A DNA stretch of 64,000 nucleotides from an uncultured Planctomycetaceae bacterium (lineage in GTDB: Bacteria; Planctomycetota; Phycisphaerae; SM23-33), in contig CAZSBS010000001.1 in the NCBI GenBank assembly GCA_964605095.1, positions 4,790 to 68,789 on the forward strand, in the 5' to 3' direction. The stretch's first letter is position 1. Every line of letters begins with the position of its first letter. The translations under genes were made by a program, and so were the position numbers. Below are positions 19,173 through 60,794 of the stretch, one piece after another. Below the pieces are notes generated by a model that saw only the letters and a program-made list of their open reading frames with translations, did not search any database and was not told the origin of the DNA.

Positions 19173-19356
19173 CAATCTCGAATCTCGAAATACGAAACAA
19201 ATCCCAAATTCCAAATTCAAATGTTCAAAACGCCGGGAGATGGCGTCATACTTGCCTGTGAGGGATCTGAGCGCCGCCTTGGAGCTTTTGTTTTGGTTTT
19301 TGTATTTTGAGATTGTTTCGGATTTCGTGCTTCGGATTTCGGATTTTTCTGTTTCG
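19173..19356. repeat. long imperfect inverted repeat of simple-sequence arms (A/C-rich then G/T-rich)
   Basis: caatctcgaatctcgaaatacgaaacaaatcccaaattccaaattcaaatgttcaaaac ... cttttgttttggtttttgtattttgagattgtttcggatttcgtgcttcggatttcggattttt. Confidence 0.6.
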
Positions 19357-19369
19357 CAAGGAGCAACAT

Positions 19370-20017
19370 ATGCGCATCTGGACAAATGCAGGCAGGATCG
19401 CGGCCCTGGCCGTCGCGTCGGCAGCCTTGGTGCTGGGCGGGTGTGATAAGTACGGTGCCGGCCGGTCCGGCAGCTTCCCGGTGGTGGATATCGTTACCTC
19501 GGCCGGGACAATCCGGGCCGAGCTCTGGCCTGACAAGGCCCCGAATACCGTCGCCAACTTCCTCCAATACGCCGATGGGGGGTTCTACGACAACACGATC
19601 TTCCATCGGTGCATCGTTGGGTTCATGATCCAGGGCGGGGGGCTTACGCCGGACTGGAAGGAAAAGCCCGCCCGGGCCGCCATCCGCAACGAGGCGGACA
19701 GCGGCCTGCGGAACGTTCGCGGCACGCTGTCGATGGCCCGCACAAGCGATCCTCACAGCGCCACCTGCCAGTTCTTCATCAACACGGCCGACAACTCCAA
19801 GCTCGACCACGAGGGTAAAACCGACGCAGGCTGGGGCTACTGCGTGTTCGGGCAGGTCACATCCGGCATGGAGGTTGTCGACGCCATCGTACAAGCCCCG
19901 ACGGTGGGTCCCGAGCAGAACGGTCGGCCCGCCAAGCCCGTGGTTATCAAGTCTATCCGGCGCGTGGGCGGCCCGAAGCCCGCCCCGGCCAAGGCCAAGG
20001 CGGGCAGTAAGGGATAG
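19370..20017 (+). CDS. cyclophilin-type peptidyl-prolyl isomerase, lipoprotein (periplasmic)
   Basis: RBS aaggag 19358; MRIWTNAGRIAALAVASAALVLGGC lipobox; ...FHRCIVGFMIQGGG... cyclophilin core. Confidence 0.88.
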   Translation: MRIWTNAGRIAALAVASAALVLGGCDKYGAGRSGSFPVVDIVTSAGTIRAELWPDKAPNTVANFLQYADGGFYDNTIFHRCIVGFMIQGGGLTPDWKEKPARAAIRNEADSGLRNVRGTLSMARTSDPHSATCQFFINTADNSKLDHEGKTDAGWGYCVFGQVTSGMEVVDAIVQAPTVGPEQNGRPAKPVVIKSIRRVGGPKPAPAKAKAGSKG

Positions 20018-20132
20018 CTATTGTTTCCTGCTCGCCGAAGCGAGCAGGCCTGCCGGCTTCGCCTTCCCCGGCGCGCCGGGGCGGCAAGCCCGGCTACCGT
20101 CTACCGTCTACTGATGACCAAGAAAGGACTAC

Positions 20133-20633
20133 ATGCTGATAACGATCCAGACATCCGAAGGGACCATCAAGGCCGAGCTCGACGAGGAGAAGGCCCCCGT
20201 AACGGTTGAAAACTTCATGCTTTACGTAGACGATGGCCAGTATGACGGCACGATCTTCCACCGCGTGATCCCCAGTTTCATGATCCAGGGCGGCGGATTC
20301 TTGCCCGACATGAAGCAGAAGCCCACCAAGGCGCCGATCCGCAACGAGGCCGGCAACGGTCTGACCAACGACCGTGGCACGCTGGCGATGGCGAGGACCA
20401 GCGTTGTCGACAGCGCCACCAGCCAGTTCTTCATCAACACCGCCGACAATGGTTTCCTCAACCACCGCGGCGAGACGCCAGACGCCTTCGGCTACGCGGT
20501 GTTCGGTAAGGTCGTCGATGGCATGGACGTGGTTGACCGCATCGAGAAGCTGCCCACCGGCCGGGCCGGGCACCACGACGACGTGCCCGTCAAGCCGGTG
20601 GTGATCCAGTCCATCCGGCGGGCCGAGGACTAA
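20133..20633 (+). CDS. cyclophilin-type peptidyl-prolyl isomerase (cytoplasmic, PpiB-like)
   Basis: 166 aa ...[15 protein letters not shown]... Confidence 0.9.
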
Positions 20634-20776
20634 GCGCCGCGCCCGACGGCGAAACATCCGCATCCCGGGCGCGACTTATCCCGCGAGTCCGGCGGCGGCG
20701 ATTCGGCAATGCCTGTTCAGCCAAGCAGTTGCCTTCGGTCGTAGGTTTGTGTACGATCTTCGCTCAAGGAGGCAGG

Positions 20777-21178
20777 ATGGCCACGAAAAAGCAAACAACC
20801 GGCACCTTGCAAGACAGATGCGCCTGTGAAGGCGGGAGCTTGGATCGGCTTATCCAACCGGCGGTCCTGGCAGCCTTGGCCAAAGAACCCCTTCATGGCT
20901 ACGCGCTGGTTATGCGCCTCAGCGAAATGCCGACGTTCGCAGGGCAGTCGCCCGACACGTCGGGGGTCTATCGCGTGCTGACCTGGCTTGAGTCGCGCGG
21001 CATGGTCACCTCTTCCTGGGACACGTCAAGTTCCGGACCGGCGAAGAAGACCTACCATATCACTGACAAAGGGCGCCTATGCCTTCGCACCTGGGTGAAG
21101 ACTCTCCGCGGATACTCCCTGGCAATCGAGGAACTCATCGAGATCACCAGCCAGGCCGCCAGCCGCGGCAAGGGCTGA
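20777..21178 (+). CDS. PadR-family transcriptional regulator
   Basis: ...PLHGYALVMRLSE...SGVYRVLTWLESRGMV...KKTYHITDKGR winged-helix PadR pattern. Confidence 0.7.
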   Translation: MATKKQTTGTLQDRCACEGGSLDRLIQPAVLAALAKEPLHGYALVMRLSEMPTFAGQSPDTSGVYRVLTWLESRGMVTSSWDTSSSGPAKKTYHITDKGRLCLRTWVKTLRGYSLAIEELIEITSQAASRGKG

Positions 21179-21368
21179 GAACGGATCGCCCGGCTGAGGT
21201 CTGTTTGCTCATTGGCCAGGGGTTTTCCAGCTTGACAGTTTTCAGACCGCCAGTAGGATTGCGGCGGTAGCTGACACTCTCCTGTATATGAGGCCATCCT
21301 ATATCGGCCCTGGAAGCCCGCAGGAGTTGGCTGCCAACAGGTGTGAGCGCTTACAGGAAGGTCAAAGC

Positions 21369-22829
21369 ATGATGATAAGGCGGGGTGTTTGGCGGGCGGC
21401 CTGGGCTTCCGTAATCCTCCCAGTGATGCTTCTCTCGTCAACCTGCCTGGCTGCGGCCAATGGCGCCACGACGGCTCCAGCCGGTGAGGCAGCCAAGCCA
21501 GCCGAGACGCCGGGTTCGGTCGGGAAGCCTTCGACCGAGCCGCACGACTGGTTCAAGCCTCTCAAGGATATTCCCGCTGGGCCTGGCCTTCTCAGCGTGG
21601 ACATGAACGTTCGGACGCGCTACGAGTGGCAGGACAATTTCAACATCAAGGGCTACGGCACGGACACCAGGGACGACCTGCTGATGATGCGTACTCAGTT
21701 GGGCCTGGACTATCGCCTTGTGTGCCCGTCGGGCGCGACTGCCCCGCACTTCTACGTGCAGGCTCAGGACAGCCGGTACTGGCTCAGCGAGCTGGCGCGG
21801 GATGGTTTTCCGACCAACTGCCCGCATTTCGACCAGTTCGACCTCCGCCAGGCGTACGCCGAGTGGCGGCGTATCGCCGGCAGCCCGGTAGGCTTCAAAG
21901 TCGGGCGGCAGTCGATATTCTATCGCGATAAGCGGGTTTTTGGCCCAGGGGACTGGGGCAACGTGGGCGGGTACTGGTGGGACGCTGCCAAGCTCTACAT
22001 CGAGACAGAGGCCGTGGACGTTGACCTGATCTACGGCAAGAGGATCATCAGCGAGCAGACACGCTTCAACGACGAGTGGTACGACTTCGACATGGCCGCC
22101 GCATACGTCCAGATCAAGAACCTCCCGTTCATACTGGACCTCTTCTACCTGCTCAAGTACGACGACGAGGGGAAGGTTTCCGGCGAGACGGGCACGGGCG
22201 ACGAGAAACGCCACACCTTCGGCCTGCACGCCGAGGGCAAAGTCGAGCGGTGGGATTACGCGACGACCCTGGCCTGGCAGACCGGCGAGATTGGGCCCGA
22301 CGAGATCTGCGCGTTCGGCGGTAATGCGGGCGCCGGCTACACGTTCGACGCCCCATGGAAGCCGCGCGTCGGCGCGGCCTTCGCCTACGCCTCCGGCGAC
22401 CGTAAGCCTCATGACGGCAGGTCTAACACCTTCGACGGCATGTTCGCAGGCGTGGGAGGAGTCTACGGGTGGATGAACCTCGTCTCGTTGAAGAATATCG
22501 AGGACTACGAGATCAAGTTCAGCGTTCAGCCGTGCAAGAATCTGACCTTGGCGATGGAGTACCACATATTCCACTTGGCCTCAGACACGGACGGTTGGTA
22601 CTGGTGCAATGGCAAGAGCATCCGCCGAGACTCCGGCGGCGACAGTGGAAACAACATCGGCAACGAGATCGACATTTACGCGAAGTGGAAGATCTGCGCG
22701 AACCTGGAATTGCAGGCCGGCTACAGCCATTTCTGCGCCGGCTCGTTTGTAAGCGGCACCAGCCCCAACAAAATGGGCGGCAACGACAACGCCGATTGGG
22801 TCTACACCCAGTTGACCTTCAAGTTCTGA
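21369..22829 (+). CDS. outer-membrane beta-barrel protein (alginate-export/porin-like), signal peptide, C-terminal Phe
   Basis: MMIRRGVWRAAWASVILPVMLLSSTCLAAANG signal; alternating amphipathic strands; ends ...YTQLTFKF. Confidence 0.6.
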   Translation: MMIRRGVWRAAWASVILPVMLLSSTCLAAANGATTAPAGEAAKPAETPGSVGKPSTEPHDWFKPLKDIPAGPGLLSVDMNVRTRYEWQDNFNIKGYGTDTRDDLLMMRTQLGLDYRLVCPSGATAPHFYVQAQDSRYWLSELARDGFPTNCPHFDQFDLRQAYAEWRRIAGSPVGFKVGRQSIFYRDKRVFGPGDWGNVGGYWWDAAKLYIETEAVDVDLIYGKRIISEQTRFNDEWYDFDMAAAYVQIKNLPFILDLFYLLKYDDEGKVSGETGTGDEKRHTFGLHAEGKVERWDYATTLAWQTGEIGPDEICAFGGNAGAGYTFDAPWKPRVGAAFAYASGDRKPHDGRSNTFDGMFAGVGGVYGWMNLVSLKNIEDYEIKFSVQPCKNLTLAMEYHIFHLASDTDGWYWCNGKSIRRDSGGDSGNNIGNEIDIYAKWKICANLELQAGYSHFCAGSFVSGTSPNKMGGNDNADWVYTQLTFKF

Positions 22830-22842
22830 AAACGGGCAAGGT

Positions 22843-24021: not shown

Positions 24022-24038
24022 CCGGTGACGAAAGCACT

Positions 24039-24884
24039 ATGGCCGTGCCGTTGTCAAAGACGCTTAAGAAACTTGCACTGGGCGCCATCGTCCCGCTGGC
24101 GATCCTGGCACTCTGGCACTGGGCGTCTTCGGCGAGCGTTGTCGTCCCTTCGATCTCGCGGGTGGCTGACGTGTTGGCACACCCACTCCGCAGGCCGCCC
24201 GACCTCGACGCCACCAGCCTGGCTGACGGACTGACCGTCAGCGTGCTCCGGGTCGCCCTGGGCTTCGGCTTGGCGGCCCTGACGGCCATCCCGGCCGGGC
24301 TGCTCATCGGGCGGTGCGCCGCCGCCAGGGCGATTTTTCAGCCGACTATTTCCGCGGCGATGTCCATCAGCCCCATCGCCTGGATGCCTATCGCGATCAT
24401 AACCTTCGGTCTGGCAAGCCCGGCTACCGTAGCTTACGGCGACGGCGCGTGGCGCCACGATGTGCTGGACCAACTCCGCTTCGCCGTCGTTGCCGTGATC
24501 TGGCTGGCGTCGTTTTTCCCGATCGTTGTCAACACGGCCGCGGGCGCCGGCGGGGTCAAACAAGCCCACTTGGAGGCGGCGCGGGTGCTGGGTGCGAGTC
24601 GGAGGGCGCTGCTGACGAAGGTCGTCATTCCTTCGGCCGTGCCGTCAATTGTGACCGGGCTGCGGCTTGGCGCGGGAATCGCCTGGCGGGTGATCGTGGC
24701 GGCGGAGATCTTTCCGGGCACGCGCAGTGGGCTCGGCTACATGATCGCCACGTCTCACGAGCAGGCCAGCTACGAGTACGCCTTCGCGGCCATCATCGTC
24801 ATCGGGGCCATCGGCATCAGCCTGGACGGCGTCTTTCGCCTCCTGGCCAGCCGCGTCGGCCACTGGCAGAGCAAGGAAAGGTGA
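24039..24884 (+). CDS. ABC transporter permease (SsuC/TauC/NrtB family)
   Basis: 281 aa, 6 TM segments, EAA-like loop ...GASRRALLTKVVIPSAVPSIVTGLRLGAGIAW... Confidence 0.85.
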   Translation: MAVPLSKTLKKLALGAIVPLAILALWHWASSASVVVPSISRVADVLAHPLRRPPDLDATSLADGLTVSVLRVALGFGLAALTAIPAGLLIGRCAAARAIFQPTISAAMSISPIAWMPIAIITFGLASPATVAYGDGAWRHDVLDQLRFAVVAVIWLASFFPIVVNTAAGAGGVKQAHLEAARVLGASRRALLTKVVIPSAVPSIVTGLRLGAGIAWRVIVAAEIFPGTRSGLGYMIATSHEQASYEYAFAAIIVIGAIGISLDGVFRLLASRVGHWQSKER

Positions 24885-24886
24885 CC

Positions 24887-25648: not shown

Positions 25649-25857
25649 ATGTATCCGCACGACTGGAACCAATTGCGGGCGTCGGAGCCGAACACTTCCT
25701 GCAGCGCGACCTTGATGGCTGCCAAGAGAGCCTCCCATGTTCGGGCCTGGCTTTTTGTAGGAACGTTTCGATTTTAGACCACATCGATTCGCCAAAGCCT
25801 TGACTGTTTACTGGTTCCCGGCATAAGATAGTCGTTAGTCTGCAAGAGCGACTGGCG

Positions 25858-27502: not shown

Positions 27503-27584
27503 TGCGAGAGGCGGGACTCGAACCCGCACCCCTTTCGGGACCAGGACCTAAACCTGGCGCGTCTGCCAATTCCGCCACCCTCGC
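27503..27584 (-). tRNA. tRNA-Leu (anticodon TAG), type II with long variable arm
   Basis: rc: GCGAGGGTGGCGGAATTGGCAGACGCGCCAGGTTTAGGTCCTGGTCCCGAAAGGGGTGCGGGTTCGAGTCCCGCCTCTCGCA; TPsiC-loop TTCGAGT; anticodon loop TTTAGGT. Confidence 0.85.
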
Positions 27585-27661
27585 GCGACCGCTGCCGCTC
27601 ACGGCGGAACATTGTCGCTTATAGAACTTATAGAAAAAGCCGGCCCGCCTTGCCAGCGTAT

Positions 27662-27706
27662 TCCGCCTTTTCCAGGTTCCGCCTTTTCCAGGTTCCGCCT
27701 TGTCTT
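27662..27706. repeat. tandem direct repeat of 16-mer ccgccttttccaggtt (2.7 copies)
   Basis: ttccgccttttccaggttccgccttttccaggttccgccttgtc in 690-bp noncoding region. Confidence 0.7.
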
Positions 27707-33375: not shown

Positions 33376-33376
33376 C

Positions 33377-44122: not shown

Positions 44123-44140
44123 GTCCCGGCGCGCCGGGAC
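44123..44140 (+). terminator. perfect 18-bp palindrome hairpin just after sigma gene stop, flanked by ggattgcggattg direct repeats
   Basis: gtcccggcgcgccgggac; flanks cgattgcggattg / ggattgcggattgcggattg. Confidence 0.45.
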
Positions 44141-44339
44141 GGATTGCGGATTGCGGATTGTCCCTGGAGCAAGCTGACGTTCTGAACGCGACGCCTGATG
44201 GGAAATGGTTCTGAAGCCCAGGGACCCCTTGGGGGCAGGTAGCAATCCCTGGGTGCAGCGCAATCTTTCCGATCCGCGATCGACTAAAACGCGGAACCAA
44301 TCGCTCATGCGGTGCGTCAAACGGGCAGAGGTGGTGGTC

Positions 44340-45422
44340 ATGAAGCGATGGATTCTATATGTGGCCGGGATGGTGGCGGCAGGGTTTGTTCTTGGGGTCG
44401 TGCTTGGCAACGGGTTCTCGCAACCGTTGCCCGCGGCCGCCGCCGTGGGTGCGGCGGATCCCAATAACAAACCAGCCATGGCCGGCGGCGCCAGCCCGTC
44501 GGCCCAGCCCGCTGCCGCGCGCCCGCAGGCAACCCAGGCGCCAGCGCCGGTTCGAGACGCCCGCGCGCCTCAATCGCCGCTCCGGAAAGCGGCTTCCGCA
44601 AATGCCCCGACCGCTGCCGCCGCGGCCCCGGAATATCCCCCGGTCGAACTGGTCGCCGCCTGCGGCCGAAAGGCGGCGGAAATCCGCGGGCAGTATGGCG
44701 CCAAGCTCAACGTGGTCGCTCATCCGCCGTTCGTGATCGCCGGCGACATGAGCGTCTCACGGCTTGAATCCTACGCCAAGGCCTCCGTGGTTCGCCCGGC
44801 CAGGGCGATGTGGGCGGCCTATTTCGACAAGAAGCCCGACCAGGTGATAACCACTTTCCTTTTCGCCGGCCAGGACAACTACAAGCTGCACGCCCGCAAG
44901 GACTATCCCGACGGGGGCGCGCCGTATTACGGGTACTACAGCCCGGCGGGGCGGACGATGGTGATGAACATCAATACCGGCACGGGCACGCTGGTCCACG
45001 AGCTTACGCACGCGCTGATAGTCTACGATTTCCCGAATCTGCCGACGTGGTTCAACGAGGGGCTCGCCAGCCTGCACGAGCAGTGCAACGTCGAGGAAGA
45101 TGGCATCACGGGCCTGCCCAACTGGCGCCTGCCGGGCCTCCAGGCCGCCATCAGCGCCGGTAAGCTTCGCCCGCTGGTGGAGCTCGTAACCAGGCGGGAC
45201 TTCTACGGCCCGGCCCAGGGGATCAACTACGCCCAGGCCCGGTACTTCGTGATGTACATGCAGCACAAGGGGCTGCTGCGCGAGTTCTACCGCTACTTCC
45301 GCGGCCACGCCGATGGCGACGCCGCGGACGTCCGCGCGATCGAACACGTCTTCGGACGGAAGATCACGGAGATCGAGCCCGCCTTCATTGCGTGGGTCAA
45401 GACGCTCAAGTTCGAGCGGTAA
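44340..45422 (+). CDS. DUF1570-like putative zinc metallopeptidase (HEXXH), N-terminal TM, Ala/Pro-rich linker
   Basis: MKRWILYVAGMVAAGFVLGVVLG TM; ...TGTLVHELTHALIVYDF... HEXXH. Confidence 0.6.
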   Translation: MKRWILYVAGMVAAGFVLGVVLGNGFSQPLPAAAAVGAADPNNKPAMAGGASPSAQPAAARPQATQAPAPVRDARAPQSPLRKAASANAPTAAAAAPEYPPVELVAACGRKAAEIRGQYGAKLNVVAHPPFVIAGDMSVSRLESYAKASVVRPARAMWAAYFDKKPDQVITTFLFAGQDNYKLHARKDYPDGGAPYYGYYSPAGRTMVMNINTGTGTLVHELTHALIVYDFPNLPTWFNEGLASLHEQCNVEEDGITGLPNWRLPGLQAAISAGKLRPLVELVTRRDFYGPAQGINYAQARYFVMYMQHKGLLREFYRYFRGHADGDAADVRAIEHVFGRKITEIEPAFIAWVKTLKFER

Positions 45423-45490
45423 GGAAGAGGAAAGACAAGGCCTTACGCGGAGGACGCAGAGGAGAAGAAAGAGAAGAAGAGTAAGCAATG

Positions 45491-45585
45491 ATAAACGCAG
45501 ACCCACGGTCCCTTCGGGATAAACGCAGATGAAAACTATCCTCTCATCCGCGTTCATCCCGAAGGGACCGTGGGTCTGCGTTTAT
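45491..45585. terminator. 28-bp perfect inverted repeat (bidirectional terminator-like) between convergent genes, embedded in purine-rich/pyrimidine-rich symmetric flanks
   Basis: ataaacgcagacccacggtcccttcggg ... cccgaagggaccgtgggtctgcgtttat. Confidence 0.6.
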
Positions 45586-45619
45586 CGCTGCAGAGAACTC
45601 TTTAGTCTCTTATTTCTTG

Positions 45620-46507
45620 TTACTTGCCGGATCCTGCGGCGATTTCCTTGGCGGTGTCGTTGAAGAACTTCACGCACGCGGCCAGGTCGGCCAGGGTGAA
45701 CTGGTGCTCGTACTCGATGGAGAACACACCCTTGAAGCCCTGGGCGTGGAGTTCCGCCAGCACGGCCTTGACGTCGCCCTTGCCGGTGCCCCAGGGCACG
45801 TCATGGCCGTTTCCGAACTCGTTGAGATCCTTGAAGTGCAGGCTTACGATCCGGCCCTTGAGCATCTTGATGGCGTCAAGGGGCTTGATGTTGCGGCGCA
45901 TCCAGTGCCCGGTGTCGGAGCAGGAGCCTATGCGTTTGCTCTTGCCCTCGCAGGCGGCCAGGACCTTTTCCGGCGGCCAGGAGTTCGGGTGGTTGTGCAG
46001 GGCCGCGTTGATGCCGTACTCGTTGCAGAGCTTGTCGAGGAACGGCGGGGTGGATTCGGTAACGATGGTTTCCAGGCCCATTACCTTGGCCCAGTCGAAC
46101 AGCTTGCGGGCGTCGGCCTCGTTGCCCGGAATGCCCGTGACGCCGAAGTTCACCAGCGTGACGCCCTTTTCCTTGAGCTTGGCCTTGACGGCGGCGATGG
46201 TCTCCTTCTTCATTTCCGGGCCCATCTTTTCGTCGATGTCCTTGCTGACCTTTTGGCCCGGGTAGGCCTCGATGTACTTCACACCGATGGCGGCTGTCTT
46301 GTCGATGGCCTCGAAGAACGTCCCGCCGCGGAACGTGTATGCCTGCGTCGCCAGGCGCCAGCCGAGCTTCTCGGCGTCCGGCGAGCCCATGGCCTGGAAC
46401 GCCGGCCCTGGCACATCCTTCGCCGCATTCGCGACGGCGGTGCCGATAAACCACAATGCCGCGGCCAAAACAGCGCCAACTGCGATTCTGCTCTTGCTCA
46501 TCTTCAT
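45620..46507 (-). CDS. secreted sugar-phosphate isomerase/epimerase (xylose-isomerase-like TIM barrel)
   Basis: signal peptide MKMSKSRIAVGAVLAAALWFIGTAVANA; TIM-barrel family pattern ...FKGVFSIEYEH... Confidence 0.7.
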   Translation of the reverse strand: MKMSKSRIAVGAVLAAALWFIGTAVANAAKDVPGPAFQAMGSPDAEKLGWRLATQAYTFRGGTFFEAIDKTAAIGVKYIEAYPGQKVSKDIDEKMGPEMKKETIAAVKAKLKEKGVTLVNFGVTGIPGNEADARKLFDWAKVMGLETIVTESTPPFLDKLCNEYGINAALHNHPNSWPPEKVLAACEGKSKRIGSCSDTGHWMRRNIKPLDAIKMLKGRIVSLHFKDLNEFGNGHDVPWGTGKGDVKAVLAELHAQGFKGVFSIEYEHQFTLADLAACVKFFNDTAKEIAAGSGK

Positions 46508-50179: not shown

Positions 50180-51433
50180 ATGCCCATGCAAGCGATTATA
50201 TACGAGGTCAATCCGGTGGGCTGGGCAACGTGCAAGTGGCTTCGGTACTTCTGGCCCGGATGCCTGCTTTCGCGGCTTGCGGGCCTGAGCCTCCGGCACG
50301 TCGAGCCGCCGAGCCTTCCCGCCGACGACTGGGTCCGCGTTCGGACCCTTATGGCAGGCATCTGCGGGACGGACCTGTCGCTGCTGGCCCAGAAGCAGCC
50401 GCCGAACTCGCTGCTCCAGGCGTTCAGTTCCATGCCGATGGTCCTCGGGCACGAGGCGCTCGGCGAGGTCGTCGAGGTCGGCCCGGCGGTCGATCGCACC
50501 TGGCTGGGTCGCCGCGTATGCGTCGATCCGACGCTTGCCTGTGAGGCCCGGGGCATCGCTCCGCCATGCCCGCGCTGCATGGAGGGGCTCTACGGCGCCT
50601 GCCAGAACTTCGGGGCTTCTGGCCTGGGGCGCTCGAAGCTGCCTCCGGGCACGAGCATCGGCTACAACAGCCGGACCGGAGGGGCGTTCGCGGAAAACTT
50701 CGTCGCCCACGTCAGCCAGCTCGTCGCCGTTCCCGAAGGCGTGCCCGACGAACAGGCCGTACTTACCGACCCGGTGGCGTGCAGCCTGCACGCGGTGCTA
50801 CGCCTGGACCTGTCCCGCGTACGCAACCTGCTTATCTACGGCACCGGCGTGCTGGGCCTGGGGGCGGTGGCGGCGCTGCGGGCCGTCGGCTATGCCGGCC
50901 GGATCGACACGCTCGACATCTGCGCGTACCTCGGGGCGCTGGCGGGGGCTTTCGGGGCCGACGAGATGCTCCATCTTCCTGGCGACAGCCGCGAGCGGTT
51001 CGAGATTATCGCCCGGCGCACGGGCGGCACCGTGCAGCGAGCCCGGTTCGGCAACTACATGCTCTCCGGCGGCTACGATGCTGTGATAGACTGCGTGGGC
51101 TCGAAGCGGTCCATAACCGAATCGCTCAAGTGGACCACCAGCCGCGGGCAGATGGTTATGCTGGCCACCGGTCACGGACGAGGCGTGGACCTCACGCCGA
51201 TCTGGTTCACCGAACTGACTGTTCTTGGTACCTACGGCCGGCAGATTGAGAACTGGCAGGGCAGGCGGATTGGAACGTACCAACTCGTGCATGAGTTGAT
51301 GGCCGTGGGAAAGCTGAACGTCTCGGCGATGCTGACGCACAAGTTCCCCCTGGCCGAGTACCGCAGGGCGCTGGAGACGGGCATGTACAAGTCCGCCCAC
51401 AAGGCGGTGAAGGTGGCTTTTGACATGCGGTGA
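50180..51433 (+). CDS. zinc-dependent alcohol/threonine dehydrogenase-like (MDR superfamily)
   Basis: ...MAGICGTDLS...GHEALGEVVEVG...; Cys cluster CPRC...C for structural zinc. Confidence 0.75.
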   Translation: MPMQAIIYEVNPVGWATCKWLRYFWPGCLLSRLAGLSLRHVEPPSLPADDWVRVRTLMAGICGTDLSLLAQKQPPNSLLQAFSSMPMVLGHEALGEVVEVGPAVDRTWLGRRVCVDPTLACEARGIAPPCPRCMEGLYGACQNFGASGLGRSKLPPGTSIGYNSRTGGAFAENFVAHVSQLVAVPEGVPDEQAVLTDPVACSLHAVLRLDLSRVRNLLIYGTGVLGLGAVAALRAVGYAGRIDTLDICAYLGALAGAFGADEMLHLPGDSRERFEIIARRTGGTVQRARFGNYMLSGGYDAVIDCVGSKRSITESLKWTTSRGQMVMLATGHGRGVDLTPIWFTELTVLGTYGRQIENWQGRRIGTYQLVHELMAVGKLNVSAMLTHKFPLAEYRRALETGMYKSAHKAVKVAFDMR

Positions 51434-51454
51434 ACGTGAGACAATGCCGAGCCG

Positions 51455-51617
51455 AATGTTCAATACTCAATGCTCAATGTTCAATGAAGAGCTCCTTGTA
51501 GCAGTAGGTTGGAGAGTCCGGATGAGCGGTAAGAACGCGTGAAACGGCTGATGCCAGTTGAACATTTGAGATTGAACATTGAATTGAGCATTGAACATTG
51601 AGCATTGGACATTCGAC
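51455..51617. repeat. inverted repeat built from caatgttcaatgctcaat units flanking ~70-bp spacer
   Basis: aatgttcaatactcaatgctcaatgttcaatg ... gttgaacatttgagattgaacattgaattgagcattgaacattgagcattggacattcgac. Confidence 0.65.
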
Positions 51618-51644
51618 AGGCACCATATAAGGAAGGCACGAATA

Positions 51645-52172
51645 ATGGCTAAGACCGTCATGAAGAAGGCAAAGCCAGTGTGTTCGGTCGGTGTGGTTAT
51701 GGGCAGTGACAGCGACCTGCCAGTCATGCAGCGGTGCCTGGAGACTCTGGAGTCGTTTGGCATCGGCTACGAGGTGCGGATAATCTCCGCCCATCGGACG
51801 CCGGAGATCGCCCACGAGTACGCCGTGACGGCGGCGGCAAGGGGCCTGAAGGTGCTGATAGCCGCGGCTGGAATGAGTGCGGCCCTTGGCGGGGTGTTGG
51901 CGGCCGGGACCACGTTGCCCGTTATCGGCGTGCCGATGGCCAGCGGGCCGCTTGCGGGCATGGACGCCGCCATTAGCACCATGCAGATGCCGCCCGGCGT
52001 GCCGGTCGCCTGCATGGCAATCGACAAGGCCGGGGCGACCAACGCCGGCATATTCGCCGCCCAGATTCTCGCCGTCGCCGACAAGTCCGTCGCGGCAAGG
52101 CTGGTGGAGTTCAAGAAAGACCAGGCCCGCAAGGTCGTAGATCAAGACCAAGCGCTGAAACCTAAGGCGTGA
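51645..52172 (+). CDS. purE: N5-carboxyaminoimidazole ribonucleotide mutase
   Basis: RBS aaggaagg; VGVVMGSDSDLPVM...IAAAGMSAALGGVLAAGTTLPVIGVP PurE signature. Confidence 0.9.
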   Translation: MAKTVMKKAKPVCSVGVVMGSDSDLPVMQRCLETLESFGIGYEVRIISAHRTPEIAHEYAVTAAARGLKVLIAAAGMSAALGGVLAAGTTLPVIGVPMASGPLAGMDAAISTMQMPPGVPVACMAIDKAGATNAGIFAAQILAVADKSVAARLVEFKKDQARKVVDQDQALKPKA

Positions 52173-55543: not shown

Positions 55544-56272
55544 ATGCCACGGCCGAAGCTATCCAACATTCCTATTGAGACATTGAAGAAGGAACTAGAT
55601 CGCCGCATTGCCAGGGTTGAGGCACTCAAGGCCCAGCGCGACAAGCTGGACCGGGAGATAGCGAAACTAGAAGGGTTGGCGGTGCAAACTGTCAGTAAGC
55701 CGGGTCCCAAGCCGGGCCGCAAGCCGGGTCCGAAGCCGGGCCGCAAACGCGGCCCCAAGCCCGGCCGAAAGCCCAGGGCCGCCCGCGGCGGCGCCAAGCC
55801 GCTGGGACAGTACGTTCGTCAGGTTCTTGCCGGTGCGCCGGGCGGAATGAACATTGCCGCCATAGAAAAGGCCGTCATCGTCGCTGGTTATCAGACCAGG
55901 GCCGAGTCGATCTACAATCCCATCCTGAAGGTCATTCGCAAGGGCGGGTACAAGAAGGTCTCGCGCGGCGTGTACGCATTGAAGTCCGCGCTGACCGCCG
56001 CGAAGCCGGCAAAGAAGGCCGCGAAGAAGGCCCCCGCGCCCGCCAAGGCCAAGGGTGCTCGCAAACGCAAGAAATACGATCAGACAGCCGAGCAGTTCGT
56101 CCTCGGTCTCGTCAAGGACAAGGGCGATTCCTCGTCTGACATCAACAAGGCGTGGAAGGCTGCGGGCAGGACCGGCCGGGCCGACAACACGCTCAATAAG
56201 ATGCTCAAGGCCGGCAAGCTCAAGAGGCAGAAGATCGTGGGAACAAAGGGCAGCATGTACACCGTTGCCTGA
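55544..56272 (+). CDS. lysine-rich DNA-binding protein with AT-hook-like KPGRKPG repeats (histone-like)
   Basis: N-terminal coiled coil then GPKPGRKPGPKPGRKRGPKPGRKP; C-terminal Lys/Ala-rich tail; AT-rich upstream region. Confidence 0.6.
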   Translation: MPRPKLSNIPIETLKKELDRRIARVEALKAQRDKLDREIAKLEGLAVQTVSKPGPKPGRKPGPKPGRKRGPKPGRKPRAARGGAKPLGQYVRQVLAGAPGGMNIAAIEKAVIVAGYQTRAESIYNPILKVIRKGGYKKVSRGVYALKSALTAAKPAKKAAKKAPAPAKAKGARKRKKYDQTAEQFVLGLVKDKGDSSSDINKAWKAAGRTGRADNTLNKMLKAGKLKRQKIVGTKGSMYTVA

Positions 56273-56478
56273 GCCGAGTCGCCGCCGCGAGCGGCCACGG
56301 GCTCTCCCATAGCCAAACGTTGCCACCAAGCGGGCGGATGTCACTATCCGCCCGTTGGCATGCGCAATTGCACTTGCTGTGTGCTCATGTTCATCGGGTG
56401 TCGAACGGCATGTGGCTATTCGTCTTCGGGGCCTGTCGAGCACTTCCGGGAAACGCTCCAGCGGGCGATCGGGTTCTG

Positions 56479-57522
56479 TCAGGCGTTGTTTCCTTGTGCT
56501 TGGGCTTGTTCGGTGGGGCGCCTGGCGCCGGCTTTTCGGGCGACGAGGCGGACCGGGGCGTGGTAGGGGTTCTCGTGCGGTCGTTCGGCGGCGAACAAGC
56601 ACATGCCGCCCCAGCCCGCGCGGCAAGTTTCGCCCATGTCGCAGCCGGTGGATCGGCCCTGGGGTTGCATCGGGCGGACGCGGCGGCTGTAGGAGAACGC
56701 CCCCGGGCTTCGCCATATTTCGGCGAGCGTCTGGGTGTGCAGGTTGCCCTCGATGAACCGCTCGTCGGCGAGCGCCTGGCATCCCCTTACGTTGCCGGCG
56801 CTGTCGATGCCCACTCCGCGCAGTCCGGCCTGGCAGCCGATGTCGTTGGTCGCGTAGATGCTCATTTTGCCTTCGGCGCATTTTTCGGCGATGAATCGTG
56901 CTACCTCGGGCATCCGCCGGGGGCTAAGCGCTGGGTCCGACGGCGCGGCTTGGCTTGCCGCGGGCGCAGCGAACTGAATCTGCCAGAGTCCCACTCCCAG
57001 GCCCGCCAGCATGTCGTACATGGCGGGCAGGTCGCCGGCGTTGGATTCCAGCAGGCTCGTCACCACACCGACCGGGAACCCCTCGGCCCGTAGGCTGCCC
57101 ACCAGGTCACAGGCGCGCCGGAACGAGCCCGGCACGCCCCTGATGCTTTCGTGGCTGGCTTTCATGCCGTCAATGGCCACGCCGATGTTCGCCGGGCGGG
57201 CGCGGCGAAGCTGGTCGATCAGCTTCCGGCCGGACAGCAGGCCGTTGGTGATGACGTTCACCCGGACCTTGCCGTCGCCCAGCCGCCGGGCTATCCTGTC
57301 CCAGCCCTCGTACAGGAAGGCCTCCCCGCCGATAAGCGTAACCTGCCGGCAGCCCTGCTCGATAAGTTGCTCAGCCACTCGCAGGCATTCGTGCAAGGTC
57401 AACTCGCCCAGGGCGCTTGTGGCGCCGGGGGATTCGCAATTCAAGCACCGCATGTTGCAGCGCAGGGTCAGTTCCCAGACGCATTGCTCGATTTTGTATG
57501 GAAACTCGCTCATTGCGTACAT
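56479..57522 (-). CDS. radical SAM protein with C-terminal Cys-rich (SPASM-like) region; in-frame upstream extension to 57702 possible
   Basis: CNMRCLNC (Cx3Cx2C) near N-terminus; C-terminal cysteines ...GCQA...CDMGETC...C. Confidence 0.7.
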   Translation of the reverse strand: MYAMSEFPYKIEQCVWELTLRCNMRCLNCESPGATSALGELTLHECLRVAEQLIEQGCRQVTLIGGEAFLYEGWDRIARRLGDGKVRVNVITNGLLSGRKLIDQLRRARPANIGVAIDGMKASHESIRGVPGSFRRACDLVGSLRAEGFPVGVVTSLLESNAGDLPAMYDMLAGLGVGLWQIQFAAPAASQAAPSDPALSPRRMPEVARFIAEKCAEGKMSIYATNDIGCQAGLRGVGIDSAGNVRGCQALADERFIEGNLHTQTLAEIWRSPGAFSYSRRVRPMQPQGRSTGCDMGETCRAGWGGMCLFAAERPHENPYHAPVRLVARKAGARRPTEQAQAQGNNA

Positions 57523-57732
57523 GCTCCCAGGCGAAATGCCTCTAGAACAGAATTGTTTCCGGCCCTCTCGACGCGTCGTTCCGTCGCCCGGCAAGCCGCG
57601 CCCCGCCGTGGGCGGGCACATGAGTTGCAAACCGCCAGTAGATCTTAGTACTCTCCGGCCGATTTTGCCAAGAGGAATTGATGAATGAATTTGCCGGAGC
57701 ACTTGCGGGGCGAGGAATCGGGGCTGGCGGGA

Positions 57733-58155
57733 TCATTCCTCGCCGGCTGGTCTGCGGCGGAGGCGTTTGGTGTCGGAACGGGTGCGTTTGGTTTCGAGGC
57801 GTTTGGTTCGCGATGCGGCGGTGGGGGCGGTGGGCTTGCGGCATTTTGGTGGGCGGGCGGCCTGGCGGATGAGCTCGACGAGCCGCTCGATAGCGGCCTG
57901 GCGGTTGGCGGCCTGCGAGCGGGATTCGCGGGAGTCGAGGATCAGCTCTCCGTCGTCGGTCATGCGGGCGCCCGCGAGTTTGCCCAGGCGGGCCTTGACG
58001 GGCTCGGAAAGGCTTGGCGAGTTTCGCACGTCGAACCTCAACTGCACGGCCGTGGCGACCTTGTTGACGTGCTGGCCGCCGGGGCCGCCGGCGCGGATGA
58101 AGGACATGTGGATTTCGCTCTCGCCTATCGAGATGGATTGAGTTATCTGGATCAT
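57733..58155 (-). CDS. arfB: peptidyl-tRNA hydrolase ArfB (alternative ribosome-rescue factor B)
   Basis: MIQITQS...FIRAGGPGGQHVNKVATAVQLRFD GGQ motif; basic C-terminal tail. Confidence 0.85.
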   Translation of the reverse strand: MIQITQSISIGESEIHMSFIRAGGPGGQHVNKVATAVQLRFDVRNSPSLSEPVKARLGKLAGARMTDDGELILDSRESRSQAANRQAAIERLVELIRQAARPPKCRKPTAPTAASRTKRLETKRTRSDTKRLRRRPAGEE

Positions 58156-58170
58156 TCTTCCCAAGGCTCA

Positions 58171-58245
58171 CAGGACCCATGCCATAGGACCTACAAGACC
58201 TGTAGGACTCATAGGTCTCATAAGTCCCATAGGACCTATTCCATG
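58171..58245. repeat. simple-sequence block of ataggacct / aggtcctat-type palindromic units
   Basis: ccataggacctacaagacctgtaggactcataggtctcataagtcccataggacctattccatgg. Confidence 0.55.
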
Positions 58246-58255
58246 GGAGCATCTT

Positions 58256-59026
58256 TTACGTTTCAGCCTCCAACCCCCCGAAGCGGCGTTTTCTTCCCGC
58301 GTAGTCGCGCAGTGCCTTGTGGAGCTCTTCTTCGGTGAAGTCAGGCCAGTAGAGGTCGGTGACGTAGAACTCGGCGTATGACAGTTGCCAGAGCAGGAAG
58401 TTGCTGATTCTCAGTTCGCCGGAGGTTCGGATGAGCAGGTCCGGGTCGGGCACGCCGTGGGTGTCCAGCGACCGGGAGATGAGGTCCTCGTCGACGTCGT
58501 CGGGGGCGAGCTTGCCCTGTGCGACGGATCGTGCGATGTTGCGGATGGCGTCGGTCATCTCGACGCGGGCGGCGTAGTTCAGGGCCAGGCACAGGTACAT
58601 GCCCGTGCAGGCGGCGGTGGCTTCGGTGGAGGAGTCGATCTCGCGGAGCACGCCGTCGGGCAGGCCCGTGCGCCGGCCTATGTGGCGGAAGCGGATGTTA
58701 TGCTCCGACATCGTCTGGCGCTCGCGGGCGAGGTAGCGGGCGTAGAGGCTCATCAGGGCCGCGACTTCCTCAGCCGGGCGGTGCCAGTTCTCGATGGAGA
58801 AACTGTAGAGCGTAAGCGCGTCGAGCCCGATGTGGGCGGCCTCGGTCACGATTCTTCGGACGACCTCGGCCCCGGCAGCGTGCCCGGCTGTGCGAGGCAG
58901 GCCGCGCTGACGGGCCCATCGCCCGTTGCCGTCGAGGATGATGGCGACCGACCGCGGGATGTGCTCGACGCTCAACCCGAGCCTCGCGTGTGCGGCGGCG
59001 GTGGTTTGGGGCGTAACGCGGCTCAT
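58256..59026 (-). CDS. uppS: undecaprenyl-diphosphate synthase (cis-prenyltransferase)
   Basis: 256 aa; ...HIAIILDGNGRWA... and ...LTLYSFSIENWHRP..., ...RTSGELRISNFLLWQ... UppS signatures; track ORF N-terminus beyond 59026 spurious. Confidence 0.88.
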   Translation of the reverse strand: MSRVTPQTTAAAHARLGLSVEHIPRSVAIILDGNGRWARQRGLPRTAGHAAGAEVVRRIVTEAAHIGLDALTLYSFSIENWHRPAEEVAALMSLYARYLARERQTMSEHNIRFRHIGRRTGLPDGVLREIDSSTEATAACTGMYLCLALNYAARVEMTDAIRNIARSVAQGKLAPDDVDEDLISRSLDTHGVPDPDLLIRTSGELRISNFLLWQLSYAEFYVTDLYWPDFTEEELHKALRDYAGRKRRFGGLEAET

Positions 59027-60336
59027 TCCTTGAAGCCCCGGACCTGCGTGTTGTGGACGATTGTGGCCTCGCGGTCCGCCCCGACGCCGATGAATCCCAC
59101 GGGCCTGCCGATGAGGCCCTCGACGGCCTGGACGTACTCGCGGGCCTCGATGGGCAGATCCTCGAATCGTCGGGCGTCGGATATCTCCTGCTTCCAGCCC
59201 GGCAGGGTTTCGTAGACGCACTCGACGCCCTGAAGGGCCGTGGCGTCGAAGTCCAGCACGGCCTCTCCGGCGACGCGGTAGCCGGTGCATATTTTCAGTT
59301 CGTCGAATCCGCTGAGCACATCCAGCAGCGCCAGGGCCAGTTCGTTGGCGCCGGAGAGGTCCGCGGCGTACTTGACGGCGAATGCGTCGAACCATCCGCA
59401 GCGTCTGGGCCGGCCCGTGGTGGTGCCGTATTCGTGCCCCCGCTCGCGGATGCGGCAGCCGGAGGCGTTGTCCTGCTCGGTGGGCATAGGCCCGGCGCCG
59501 ACCCGCGTGGTGTAGGCCTTGACGAGCCCCACGACTCGCCCGACCGCCGACGGCGGCACGCCGGCGCCGGCGGGCACGCCGCAGGCCGTCACGGACGAGC
59601 TTGTTACGAACGGGTACGTGCCGTGATCGACATCCAGCAGGCTGCCCTGTCCGCCCTCGAAGAGGATCGGCTCGCGGACGGCGATGGCTCGGCGGAGCCT
59701 GGCGCCGGTGTTGGCGACCATGCCGGCAAGCTTTCGCCCGTAGTCGCAAAACTCCTGGACGATGGCTTCGACGTCCATCGGCTCGCTGGAGTAAAGGGCG
59801 GCGAAGGTGCGGTTCTTGATGTCGGCGATGCGGCGGATCTTCTCGCCCAGTTCGGCCTCATTCAGCAGATCGGCCACGCGGATGGCGGTCGATCGGCGGG
59901 CCTTGTCGGCGTAGCACGGGCCTATGCCGCGGGCGGTGGTGCCGATCTTGCCCTCGCCGAGGGAGCCTTCCGAGCCCGTGTCCTCGATTTTGTGCCACGG
60001 CATGACGACCTGGGCGGCGGCGCTTATCAGGAGGTTGCCGGGTCCGACGCTGACGCCGCGTTGCCGGAGGTGCTCGATCTCCTGCCAGGCGATGGTCGGG
60101 TCGAAGACCACGCCGTTGCCGATGACGTTCAGGACCTCCGGGCGGAGGATGCCGCAGGGGATCAGGTGCAGGGCGTACTTCTCGCCGCCGACGTGGACGG
60201 TGTGACCCGCGTTGGCGCCGCCGCAGAAGCGGACGACGTACTTGCAGACGCCCGAAAGGGCGTCAACCACCTTGCCTTTGCCCTCATCGCCCCACTGAAG
60301 GCCCACAACCGTGACGTTGACGTTCTGTGTGTCCAT
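59023..60336 (-). CDS. purA: adenylosuccinate synthetase
   Basis: MDTQNVNVTVVGLQWGDEGKGKVVD... P-loop and GNGVV...; 4-bp overlap with uppS. Confidence 0.9.
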   Translation of the reverse strand: MDTQNVNVTVVGLQWGDEGKGKVVDALSGVCKYVVRFCGGANAGHTVHVGGEKYALHLIPCGILRPEVLNVIGNGVVFDPTIAWQEIEHLRQRGVSVGPGNLLISAAAQVVMPWHKIEDTGSEGSLGEGKIGTTARGIGPCYADKARRSTAIRVADLLNEAELGEKIRRIADIKNRTFAALYSSEPMDVEAIVQEFCDYGRKLAGMVANTGARLRRAIAVREPILFEGGQGSLLDVDHGTYPFVTSSSVTACGVPAGAGVPPSAVGRVVGLVKAYTTRVGAGPMPTEQDNASGCRIRERGHEYGTTTGRPRRCGWFDAFAVKYAADLSGANELALALLDVLSGFDELKICTGYRVAGEAVLDFDATALQGVECVYETLPGWKQEISDARRFEDLPIEAREYVQAVEGLIGRPVGFIGVGADREATIVHNTQVRGFKE

Positions 60337-60493
60337 TACGCTACCATGAAAGGGGAGAAACTCCGCGGTCAACACAACCTGCTAAGGATAGCCCAAGCGG
60401 CGGGGCTGTCAAGTGGTTGGATTAAAACAGCCGGGAGCGCAGGGGCTCTCGCCAGGCCGCAAGCGACCGCCGCCGGTAAAGGATCCATTGGCA

Positions 60494-60794
60494 GACAAGG
60501 ACCAAATGACAAGCACCAAAATCCAAACAAGGACCAAGAAGATAAACAGCAAATCTCAAACAGGACAAAGAACCCCGGCGCCTTAAACCCCTAGGCCTTG
60601 CCGGGAGAGGTTTTTGACAGCCCGAAGGCCCGGGTCAGGGCGTCGCGGTTTGCCGAAGCCCTCTGGGCTGAGACACCATTGATGGGCGTCCTGTCTTTTC
60701 TTTGTTTCTTGTTTGGAATCTGCCTGCCGGCAGGTTTGCTGTTTTGCTGTTTGGTCCTTGTTTGTTCCTTGGTGCTTGCAACTTGGTCCTTGCC
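60494..60794. repeat. ~85-bp imperfect inverted repeat arms (A/C-rich vs G/T-rich) flanking ~110-bp GC-rich core
   Basis: gacaaggaccaaatgacaagcaccaaaatccaaacaaggaccaagaagataaacagcaaatc... vs rc of ...tttgctgttttgctgtttggtccttgtttgttccttggtgcttgcaacttggtccttgcc (~80% identical). Confidence 0.65.

Follow-up and report, generated by a model that had tools for sequence, protein, structure and literature searches.

Mirror-image arrays of short tandem units in the intergenic DNA of an uncultured Phycisphaerae bacterium: probable members of dispersed, hypervariable repeat families

Introduction

Several spacers in a 64,000-nucleotide (nt) stretch of the genome of an uncultured Planctomycetaceae bacterium (assembly GCA_964605095.1, contig CAZSBS010000001.1; the whole stretch is called here the window) carry long imperfect inverted repeats, which raises the question of what these elements are and what they do for their host. 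The initial annotation, made from the sequence, listed five of them (here loci A to E) and described a common design: an A/C-rich arm built of a locus-specific short motif, a GC-rich spacer and a G/T-rich complementary arm, placed at operon boundaries and with no primary sequence shared between loci. The analysis reported here finds that this observation is largely right and that the architecture is beyond chance. The loci are best read as probable members of dispersed hypervariable families and not as regulatory RNAs invented locus by locus. We hold with moderate confidence the reading as a whole, namely that these are dispersed, fast-evolving repeat elements whose main effect on the host would be a two-way stop or insulation of transcription.

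Inverted repeats in the spacers of the window

The five listed loci and a sixth, previously unlisted element are the following (window positions; span and score of the inverted-repeat scan in brackets).

18300-18590, strand-neutral: sixth element, a GC-rich nested palindrome upstream of HIT (18311-18578; 25)
19172-19356, strand-neutral: locus A, HIT-cyclophilin spacer (19179-19334; 15.5)
45417-45629, strand-neutral: locus B, between the convergent peptidase-like (+) and AP_endonuc_2 (-) genes (45490-45586; 38)
51445-51621, strand-neutral: locus C, spacer from the ADH-like gene to purE (51453-51615; 23)
58160-58248, - strand: locus D, uppS-arfB spacer, a hairpin of 9-nt units (TAGGACTCA)
60481-60808, strand-neutral: locus E, purA divergent region, with purA (-) on one side and a small hypothetical gene (+) on the other (60493-60795; 31.5)

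The scan covered the whole window (ungapped, +1/-1.5, span of up to 460 nt) and shuffled windows scored at most 17 in it (10 global and 10 100-nt-block dinucleotide shuffles). The annotated inverted repeats were recovered in place, at the top-scoring loci of the window. Folding or pairing far exceeded that of shuffled sequences at four listed loci out of five (those at 45423, 51455, 60494 and, on the gene strand, 58171) and at the element 18300-18590. RNAfold gave a minimum free energy (mfe) of -118.6 kcal/mol (z -12.8) for locus B (45415-45635), of -156.7 (z -9.5) for locus E (60480-60810) and of -178.1 (z -11.6) for 18300-18590, with a z of -4.9 for locus C (51440-51625). Locus D folds to -45.4 kcal/mol on the gene (-) strand (58150-58270, z -3.4) and to -30.4 kcal/mol on the + strand (58150-58260, z -2.0). 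Locus A pairs weakly (19165-19365, z -1.3 on the + strand and -2.6 on the - strand; scan score 15.5), so that the hairpins foreseen for all five loci stand for four and are borderline at 19173. When about 31 spacers were folded, strong structure on at least one strand was confined to the named loci and a terminator-like hairpin behind rplQ; weaker structure was found in the spacers 20018-20132 (+) and 56273-56478 (-).

The elements share a recurring intergenic design, a long imperfect hairpin with low-complexity arms and a GC-richer centre, whose non-random nature is supported by the shuffles. They occupy their spacers from the stop codon up to the next ribosome-binding site. The GC content of the spacers concerned is 0.45-0.55 compared to ~0.62 for the window, which bears out the raised AT content that had been noted. 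Tandem Repeats Finder (TRF) confirmed that the arms are simple sequence, with arrays of period 7, 9 and 14/32. None of the eight period-7 arrays in the window lies within a gene, and the intragenic tandem arrays have periods that are multiples of 3. The arms therefore correspond to long simple-sequence repeats of the heptamer type set in mirror image. Two perfect heptamer arrays have no inverted partner, so 7-nt arrays occur unpaired too:

20090-20111: solitary (CCGTCTA)x3.1 array (TRF)
44140-44160: solitary (CGGATTG)x3 array, intergenic (TRF)

Composition is the point at which the annotated design needed correction. The succession of an A/C-rich arm and a G/T-rich arm applies to the loci at 19173 and 60494 only; the one at 45423 has an A/G-rich arm followed by a C/T-rich arm, and those at 51455 and 58171 do not follow the scheme.

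Organization of the individual loci

Locus E lies in the purA divergent region and carries a family motif in both arms.

60493-60575: A/C-rich arm of locus E
60576-60689: GC-rich centre of locus E
60690-60795: G/T-rich arm of locus E
60502-60537 (+) and 60751-60786 (-): copies of the 36-nt family motif (see below)
60385-60412, - strand: promoter-like sequence of purA, TTGACA-16-TATCCT, on the purA side of hairpin E (consensus scan)

Its base composition changes from A.53 and C.25 in the 5′ arm (G.16) to T.48 and G.25 in the 3′ arm, and a period 14/32 array starts at 60494 (TRF). The promoter-like site is conserved in the related contigs L087, L089 and L091. Its position between E and purA would place the hairpin upstream of the purA transcription start and outside the purA mRNA. 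A small palindrome with a T-run is found within the 3′ arm (60716-60737). Small GC palindromes of this type (CTGCCTGCCGGCAGGCAG or a near variant) lie inside the arms of several GC-rich family copies (window 60716-60737, L151, L122) and resemble a canonical terminator when they are on the T-rich arm. Gene calling is disturbed in this region: a 71-amino acid open reading frame (ORF) was called inside E (L001:10771-10986) and an 85-amino acid one inside hairpin DNA (L091:7781-8038), and the 133-amino acid ORF beside E (60840-61241) is probably over-extended, the calls in relatives being 80-92 amino acids long.

Locus A is borderline as a hairpin and clear as a pair of 7-nt arrays.

19173-19232: 5′ arm of locus A, 7-nt units AATCTCG and CAAATTC
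19233-19282: GC-rich centre of locus A
19283-19356: 3′ arm of locus A, (TTTCGGA)n

Period-7 arrays were detected at 19174, 19198 and 19316 (TRF), the arm composition passes from A.45 and C.25 to T.55 and G.24, and the element ends 13 nt upstream of the cyclophilin ATG (19370). The 3′ arm reads CGAAATCCGAAGCACGAAATCCGAAACAA, which is the E-family consensus with CCAA changed to CGAA, and four relaxed matches to the E-arm motif lie within the locus. By these matches A is a diverged member of the A/C-rich family of E. The neighbouring element at 18300-18590 is built differently, its arms being themselves small hairpins (e.g. AGCCCCGTTCACGGGGCT).

Locus B has two nested parts, whose outermost base pairs take in both flanking stop codons.

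45423-45484: outer A/G-rich arm of locus B
45490-45532 and 45544-45586: arms of the near-perfect 43-bp core hairpin of locus B
45592-45627: outer T/C-rich arm of locus B

The first arm has an A+G content of.84 and the second one is T-rich; the outer 5′ arm shows a period of 3/6/12 and not of 7.

Locus C has arms of one heptamer vocabulary around a GC-richer, multi-branch centre.

51453-51487: 5′ arm of locus C, (AATGYTC)n
51556-51618: 3′ arm of locus C, (TTGAACA)n

Its arms show no compositional asymmetry, and period-7 arrays start at 51455 and at 51558 (8.3 copies; TRF). The element ends 9 nt short of the purE ribosome-binding site. A promoter read by eye in the 3′ arm (TTGGAC-15-TATAAG) was rejected because its leader would miss the ribosome-binding site. 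In locus D, whose arms are likewise free of compositional asymmetry, a period-9 array is present at 58203 (TRF) and the base of the hairpin overlaps the arfB ribosome-binding site. This locus had been described as lying after arfB; its place is the uppS-arfB spacer, which on the - strand puts it upstream of arfB.

Sequence families across contigs

Within the window the absence of shared primary sequence holds, apart from the relaxed matches of the E-arm motif in locus A. It does not hold once related contigs are included: A, B and E have copies at non-orthologous sites and their motifs, taken at first for locus-specific, belong to families. Locus A matches contig L188 over 58 nt with 91% identity (60 bits; shuffle maximum 26) and contig L123 over 34 nt with 100% identity (68 bits), both at non-syntenic positions. 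The core of B, AGCAATGATAAACGCAGA, recurs in the uppS-arfB spacer of L087 and L093 and in L123, where the match is 16 nt with 100% identity. Locus E aligns with the divergent 6PGD-GerE spacer of L089 (2860-3110) at 36 of 42 nt (36 bits; at most 28 in three sets of shuffles).

Hairpins from non-orthologous spacers were compared all-against-all and four arms were aligned, yielding the 36-nt consensus CCAARTNNCAAGCACCAANNNNCAAANAAGNNCCAA (27 specified bases and nine free positions), which both arms of E match. A consensus scan found this motif in at least 120 metagenome contigs with a GC content from 0.32 to 0.67; 131 copies in 118 contigs were tabulated. Several contigs carry it twice, inverted and 85-240 nt apart, or at two separate places, and an inverted partner was present within 450 nt for 77 of 93 copies. 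One contig has three 50-nt units in direct tandem (L158:1145-1280). The motif also forms direct arrays in L174 (5648-5707) and L175 (1706-1819), with four overlapping 14-nt or 32-nt steps.

Two sub-types could be distinguished. In the GC-rich contigs, the window among them, both arms carry the complete motif and the GC-rich centre between them is large; in contigs of lower GC content the loop is short and the 3′ arm consists simply of an (ATTTGGN)n array. The AroB protein of one motif contig of GC 0.45 is 87% identical to a protein named by NCBI from a Candidatus Omnitrophota metagenome-assembled genome (MAG). Judged by these contigs, the A/C family occurs both in GC-rich contigs like the Planctomycetota (Phycisphaerae-like) window and in at least one Omnitrophota contig. 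Conservation extends to the 3′ arm, although it was outside the search pattern, and likewise to other positions outside it, while the centres could not be aligned in any non-orthologous pair with shared arms. Many copies are wrapped, onion-like, in layers of other inverted or direct heptamer arrays. The best autocorrelation lag was 7 or 14 in 96 of the 153 hairpins from motif-bearing contigs, compared to 23 of 84 in unrelated genomes. In L100, L121, L126 and L148, (GGGATGA)n arrays in direct orientation flank the A/C hairpin on both sides, as if it sat in a pre-existing G-rich array.

The motif was not found in 2.9 million viral contigs nor in 80 loci from other phyla. A BLAST search of a family hairpin against plasmids and phages gave no match, although the low-complexity filter may hide one. 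No recurrent feature was seen beside the family copies. Rfam (E≤0.1, 18 family loci) returned no family, only one tRNA and two chance matches to plant miRNA precursors, and Rfam 15 at the gathering threshold identified two tRNAs in the whole window and no matching family. No paper describing an A/C-rich hairpin family, Planctomycetes terminators or hairpins, or the motif string was found in the open-access literature; the A/C hairpin family was thus found described neither in papers nor in Rfam.

Heptamer-armed hairpins of other vocabularies were seen in a Phycisphaerales MAG (L024:4391-4558 and 8361-8466, TGGGCGC), in an unclassified bacterium of GC 0.71 (L035:8560-8700 and 9755-9861, GAATGAC) and in an Acidobacteriota MAG (L047:3950-4049 and 7304-7396, GTGACAG and CTGAAAA, one of them with the T-rich arm first). 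A Tepidisphaeraceae MAG carries another GC-rich multi-copy repeat (e.g. GGCCCTCTCCCTACCCTCTCCCGGGGTACCGGGCGAGGGGTTTGG) in long inverted pairs (L009:6743-7035 and 8800-9248).

Turnover in syntenic relatives

Syntenic relatives were ranked by the identity of their PurA protein to that of the window: 93% for L087 and L093, 92% for L096, 90% for L089, 89% for L091 and 83% for L097. Locus C is identical in five independent assemblies, ENA and JGI ones included; the contigs with exactly the same proteins (L001-L006) do not differ in this spacer and hence offer no variation to compare. In the relatives its spacer measures 211, 301 or 473 nt. L093 carries the hairpin of the window at 91% identity, with one 7-nt unit less and a few substitutions, L091 has a 301-nt variant and L087 a 473-nt (GAATGCCAN)n hairpin with an mfe of -250 kcal/mol, in which a duplicated unit is present in both arms.

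On the purA side, hairpin D is common to the window and L091, absent at 83% PurA identity (L097, where the uppS-arfB spacer is reduced to 5 nt) and replaced at 90-93% (L087, L096, L093, L089) by an unrelated nested hairpin with outer (GGGATGCAGG)n and inner (GATGAACGCA)n arrays. There is no hairpin upstream of purA at 92-93% identity (L087, L093, L096), and L089 keeps a short remnant resembling one arm of E. Hairpin A is missing from L218 and L220, whose HIT proteins are 81% and 77% identical to the one of the window and whose HIT-cyclophilin spacers are 48 and 25 nt long; the element at 18300-18590 has a nearly unchanged counterpart in L219 (HIT 89% identical). The more distant L007 and L008 (73% and 67% PurA identity) have no such hairpins near purA and are too distant to inform. 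These comparisons show that, within one narrow clade (77-93% protein identity), hairpins appear and disappear, change in size or give way to others. They also make the assignment to operon boundaries doubtful for several loci: the short hairpin-free spacers of relatives (25-48 nt for HIT-cyclophilin, 5 nt for uppS-arfB) imply that hairpins arose between genes that lie close together and are probably transcribed as one unit.

The mode of change could be followed at one filled/empty pair. L093 has an insertion of ~300 nt relative to L096, the end of which is an inverted copy of the upstream flank. This suggests template switching rather than a cut-and-paste insertion. The one-unit difference in L093 and the wide range of lengths fit replication slippage, while the long near-identical stretches at unrelated sites require some copying between loci. 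At A, D and E the flanks of the relatives have diverged too far for target-site duplication to be judged. L123 was considered as a filled site to be compared to the window and rejected for not being syntenic.

Short-read assemblies tend to break at the elements: L003 and L006 start 61 nt before purE, L219 also breaks at an element and Logan contigs end in the hairpin. The closest HIT homologues are on contigs of ~1 kb.

Gene setting and other features of the window

The gene setting was defined by Pfam matches and by genes called on identical contigs. The closest relatives of the window purA are from uncultured Planctomycetota MAGs (73% and 67% identity), followed by Tepidisphaeraceae, and the homologues of purA and HIT with a named source are from Phycisphaerae.

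17104-17688: rplQ
18637-19113: HIT
19370-20017: cyclophilin
44205-45422, + strand: peptidase-like
45620-46507, - strand: AP_endonuc_2
50180-51433: ADH-like
51645-52172: purE
57733-58155, - strand: arfB
58256-59026, - strand: uppS
59023-60336, - strand: purA

A perfect 15-bp stem followed by a moderately U-rich tail is found 3′ of rplQ (17747-17794). It is the one canonical-looking terminator near the loci, and L218 has a similar hairpin behind its rplQ. The spacer beside a tRNA gene (27503-27584) holds a perfect tandem repeat of 16 nt (TTCCGCCTTTTCCAGG x2.6; 27661-27701). A tandem repeat of 12/24/36 nt (AAGCCGGGCCGC; 55697-55801) lies where ORFs of opposite strands overlap and may correspond to a low-complexity, repetitive protein segment.

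Relation to known repeat systems

The nearest described systems appear to be inverted pairs of heptamer repeats, the repetitive extragenic palindromic (REP) sequences with their paired form REPIN, and MITEs (miniature inverted-repeat transposable elements). Heptamers are the commonest long simple-sequence repeats in prokaryotes according to the passage of PMC4679880 that cites Mrazek 2007. Xanthomonas has 70-75 inverted pairs of GGGAATC arrays, close together on opposite strands and capable of forming stem-loops (Rehm et al. 2015, PMC4692102). These pairs are under-represented between divergent genes, and GGGGAYT arrays are known in Nostoc (PMC4692102). The elements described here resemble the Xanthomonas and Nostoc arrays in their tandem 7-nt units, their over-representation in non-coding DNA and their variable number of units. 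The scan also found two arrays close together on opposite strands, as in Xanthomonas, and G-rich (GGGATGN)n arrays are present in the motif contigs too. By their tandem units, non-coding enrichment, unit-number variation and opposed arrays, the elements are inverted pairs of heptamer arrays. They differ in having many unit vocabularies, in arms that are ordered mosaics and not one repeated heptamer, in the conservation of one such mosaic in contigs of two phyla, in the GC-rich centre that the arrays enclose in nested layers, and in A/C-rich arms that cannot form G-quadruplexes on the pattern strand. A vocabulary common to distant phyla is also a trait of the TAACTGA direct repeats of Beggiatoaceae, cyanobacteria and Bacteroidetes, for which no route of transfer is known (MacGregor 2015, PMC4679880). 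Those heptamers are likewise intergenic and found a few nt from start codons but form short direct arrays, with one inverted set among 170 (PMC4679880).

REPs are GC-rich palindromes of 20-40 nt with a conserved GTAG or CGTC head and are tied to RAYT transposases (PMC3733652). Like REPs, bacterial interspersed mosaic elements (BIMEs) and REPINs, the elements of the window are dispersed extragenic palindromes that fall into families, vary between close relatives and fill spacers; the GC-rich 18300-18590 has the look of clustered small palindromes. The arms of the elements are unlike REPs: AT-rich tandem units (GC 0.33-0.53) extend over 35-100 nt, and when the arms were read neither a GTAG nor a CGTC head was seen, a reading by eye to which no scan for the pattern was added. 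REP, BIME and REPIN sequences are credited with transcription termination, protection of mRNA ends and protein binding. Bacterial MITEs (Correia, ERIC/IRU, Nezha) are non-coding, intergenic, multi-copy elements of 100-400 nt with terminal inverted repeats and a strain-variable distribution. The window elements have in common with them the terminal inverted repeats, the dispersed copies, sometimes several per contig, and conserved ends with variable interiors. They differ by the absence of target-site duplication at the one site compared, by ends that are long arrays of tandem units, by the replacement of whole spacers instead of their interruption and by the lack of a known parent insertion sequence.

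The succession of an A-rich stretch, a hairpin and a T-rich stretch is also that of bidirectional intrinsic terminators, although the stems are several times longer, AT-rich and not short and GC-rich, and lack a clean U-tract; copies are found, in addition, in divergent spacers and between closely spaced genes. The arm of the A/C family resembles a Rho utilization (rut) site, being C-rich, G-poor and structure-free over 60-80 nt with regularly spaced CC dinucleotides (PMC6144790).

Nature of the elements and possible effect on transcription

Each element consists of two mirror-image arrays of short tandem units, mostly of 7 nt, round a freer, GC-richer centre, an arrangement through which either DNA strand, or RNA made from either, can fold into a long hairpin. 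Copies arise at new spacers and vanish or are replaced; whole units are gained or lost, as replication slippage would have it, and, at least once, an element was lengthened by an inverted copy of neighbouring sequence, as in template switching. In the mechanism that we propose, a transcript arriving from either side would carry at its end a long hairpin, the 3′ arm of which is U-rich. Transcripts of A/C elements would first expose a C-rich, G-poor stretch of A and C, two bases that do not pair with one another, with CC about 14 nt apart, similar in composition and spacing to a Rho loading site. The main effect on the host would then be a two-way stop or insulation of transcription together with the capping of RNA ends, as for REP/BIME and some MITEs.

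The order of the arms is the most suggestive feature in this respect. Among hairpins scoring at least 16, the ratio of A-rich to T-rich first arms is 75:0 for the family, 41:9 for other hairpins of the same contigs, 8:2 in the clade of the window and 19:13 in unrelated genomes. The A-then-T order survives reverse-complementing, so that it belongs to the element and not to a strand, as expected for a stop signal that works from either side. Composition and position thus point to a two-way stop or insulator as the most likely host effect. A Rho component would be partial at best. The published rule for rut sites asks for a C>G skew and 60-80 nt of single-stranded RNA with (YC)N9-13 spacing (PMC6144790); the arms of the A/C family (CC about every 14 nt) fit this description while B, C and D do not. 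Two other candidates were discarded: CsrA-type GGA motifs occur in the arms of only some loci and within stems, and integron attC sites do not agree with flanking genes that are housekeeping and in mixed orientation.

Several observations weigh against this reading, some of them against the stopping of transcription as the reason for the existence of the elements. The genes between which hairpins arose are separated by 5-48 nt in relatives, and an efficient terminator there would silence the downstream gene. Element E lies in a divergent region upstream of the promoter-like site of purA, with no obvious need for a stop. Among 54 oriented family copies, 19 are in (+,+), 15 in convergent, 11 in (-,-) and 9 in divergent spacers, a distribution not clearly unlike random placement. 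Covariation is nearly missing: RNAalifold of 57 family hairpins gave a weak consensus with a single covarying pair, and the two arms agree at the nine free motif positions hardly more within a locus (0.48) than between loci (0.41). As the arm sequence is conserved, it seems to be the sequence that is kept, the pairing following from it. The first arms of non-family hairpins in motif-bearing contigs are G-rich rather than C-rich in 26:15 cases, and many of them are purine-rich, which keeps the Rho-site idea from being general. Over the 20 kb of the window scanned with a consensus, canonical terminator-like sites show no excess (18 found, 16.9 expected), the flags near the loci being the small palindrome of E's 3′ arm and a single site where B ends; the 3′ arms of the long hairpins are U-rich without a clean U-tract. 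As to mobility, no target-site duplication accompanies the filled/empty pair (L093 compared to L096 and L087), at which 5 nt were replaced, and we know of no transposase for the elements.

If stops were selected as such, the elements would be purpose-built two-way terminators, with A/C arms for Rho loading, U-rich arms for release and a family likeness due to a shared optimal design. The strong bias for A-rich-first, T-rich-second arms is in line with this, as are the rut-like A/C arms, the filling of the convergent spacer by B from stop codon to stop codon, the fold of D that is better by 15 kcal/mol on the gene strand, and the fact that the uppS-arfB and ADH-purE spacers hold some hairpin in most relatives, even of unrelated sequence. 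We nevertheless find this account unlikely, as A, D and E are dispensable in relatives, E is upstream of a promoter-like site in a divergent region, 9 of the 54 family copies are in divergent spacers and the size at one spacer ranges from 100 to 473 nt; moreover, the perfect identity over 34 nt at non-orthologous loci argues for copying and not for convergence. Copying is equally what separates the dispersed families that we favour from a by-product of mutation in place, in which 7-nt slippage and quasi-palindrome template switching would shape any unconstrained spacer without copying or function. The processes themselves have left their traces, in the one-unit indel between the window and L093, the tandem duplications mirrored in both arms of the L087 hairpin and the inverted flank copy that ends the L093 insertion. 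The space that the elements fill is exactly the unconstrained one, there are heptamer arrays without a partner, and the abundance of heptamers in prokaryotes is put down to slippage in the passage of PMC4679880 mentioned above. A consensus of 27 specified bases in at least 120 contigs of GC 0.32-0.67 and two phyla is left unexplained by such processes, and so are the near-identical stretches of 34-58 nt at non-orthologous sites, which renders a purely mutational origin rather improbable.

The conservation of arm sequence with scarce covariation would also be expected of protein-binding arrays on double-stranded DNA, flanking a centre for nucleoid organisation or promoter control, for which the hairpin potential would be incidental. 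Cooperative binding to 7-bp heptad arrays is known for the omega repressor of plasmid pSM19035, and plasmid centromere-binding proteins are comparable. The 7-bp periodicity, the free centres, the presence in all kinds of spacers independently of orientation and the location of E between divergent promoters agree with this possibility. It is improbable considering that no candidate protein is known, that unit vocabularies differ from locus to locus, that 77 of the 93 motif copies have an inverted partner and that double-stranded DNA binding has no need for a consistent A-then-T order. Structured non-coding RNAs with genes of their own, or cis-regulatory leaders closed by a long stem, would account for the stable folds at B, E and 18300-18590 and for the slightly higher stability of the pattern strand in the 57 family hairpins (-51.9 compared to -48.5 kcal/mol, p=0.003). 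They are very improbable in view of centres that are not conserved between copies, the almost nil covariation, the lack of an Rfam match in the window and the 18 family loci, a presence that differs among close relatives and the about equal folding of both strands. Chance or an assembly artefact is hardly credible: the scores at 19173 and 58171 (+ strand) are in or near the range of the shuffles and contigs often break at elements, but all shuffles are surpassed by far at four loci, ENA and JGI assemblies have the identical sequence, the breaks of the Logan contigs fall within the hairpin itself and the same elements are present in syntenic relatives.

A more specific proposal can be made, tentatively, for the A/C family (arms CCAAATnnCAAGCACCAAATnnCAAAyAAGCwCCAA..., paired with an (ATTTGGN)n arm). 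It might be an undescribed element of the Planctomycetes-Verrucomicrobia-Chlamydiae group, with a free centre and arms whose sequence a dedicated trans-acting factor would keep. It would then be either a mobile element of a new class, borne on hairpins and ending in tandem units, or a new kind of two-way transcription insulator that depends on a factor and is used in Planctomycetota and Omnitrophota.

Significance

For metagenomics, the elements matter because they break short-read assemblies and attract spurious gene calls, and their masking is advised for the annotation of MAGs. They also provide a large, sequence-defined set for studying how 7-nt repeats of the same vocabulary recur in distant bacteria (cyanobacteria, Xanthomonas, Beggiatoaceae). 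A gap would be filled if the elements served Planctomycetota and Omnitrophota as their usual transcription stops or insulators: canonical terminator-like sites are unenriched in the 20 kb scanned, and the open-access literature yielded no paper on terminators in either phylum. If their arms were bound by a specific factor, they would point to an unknown protein or to a class of mobile element common to the two phyla.

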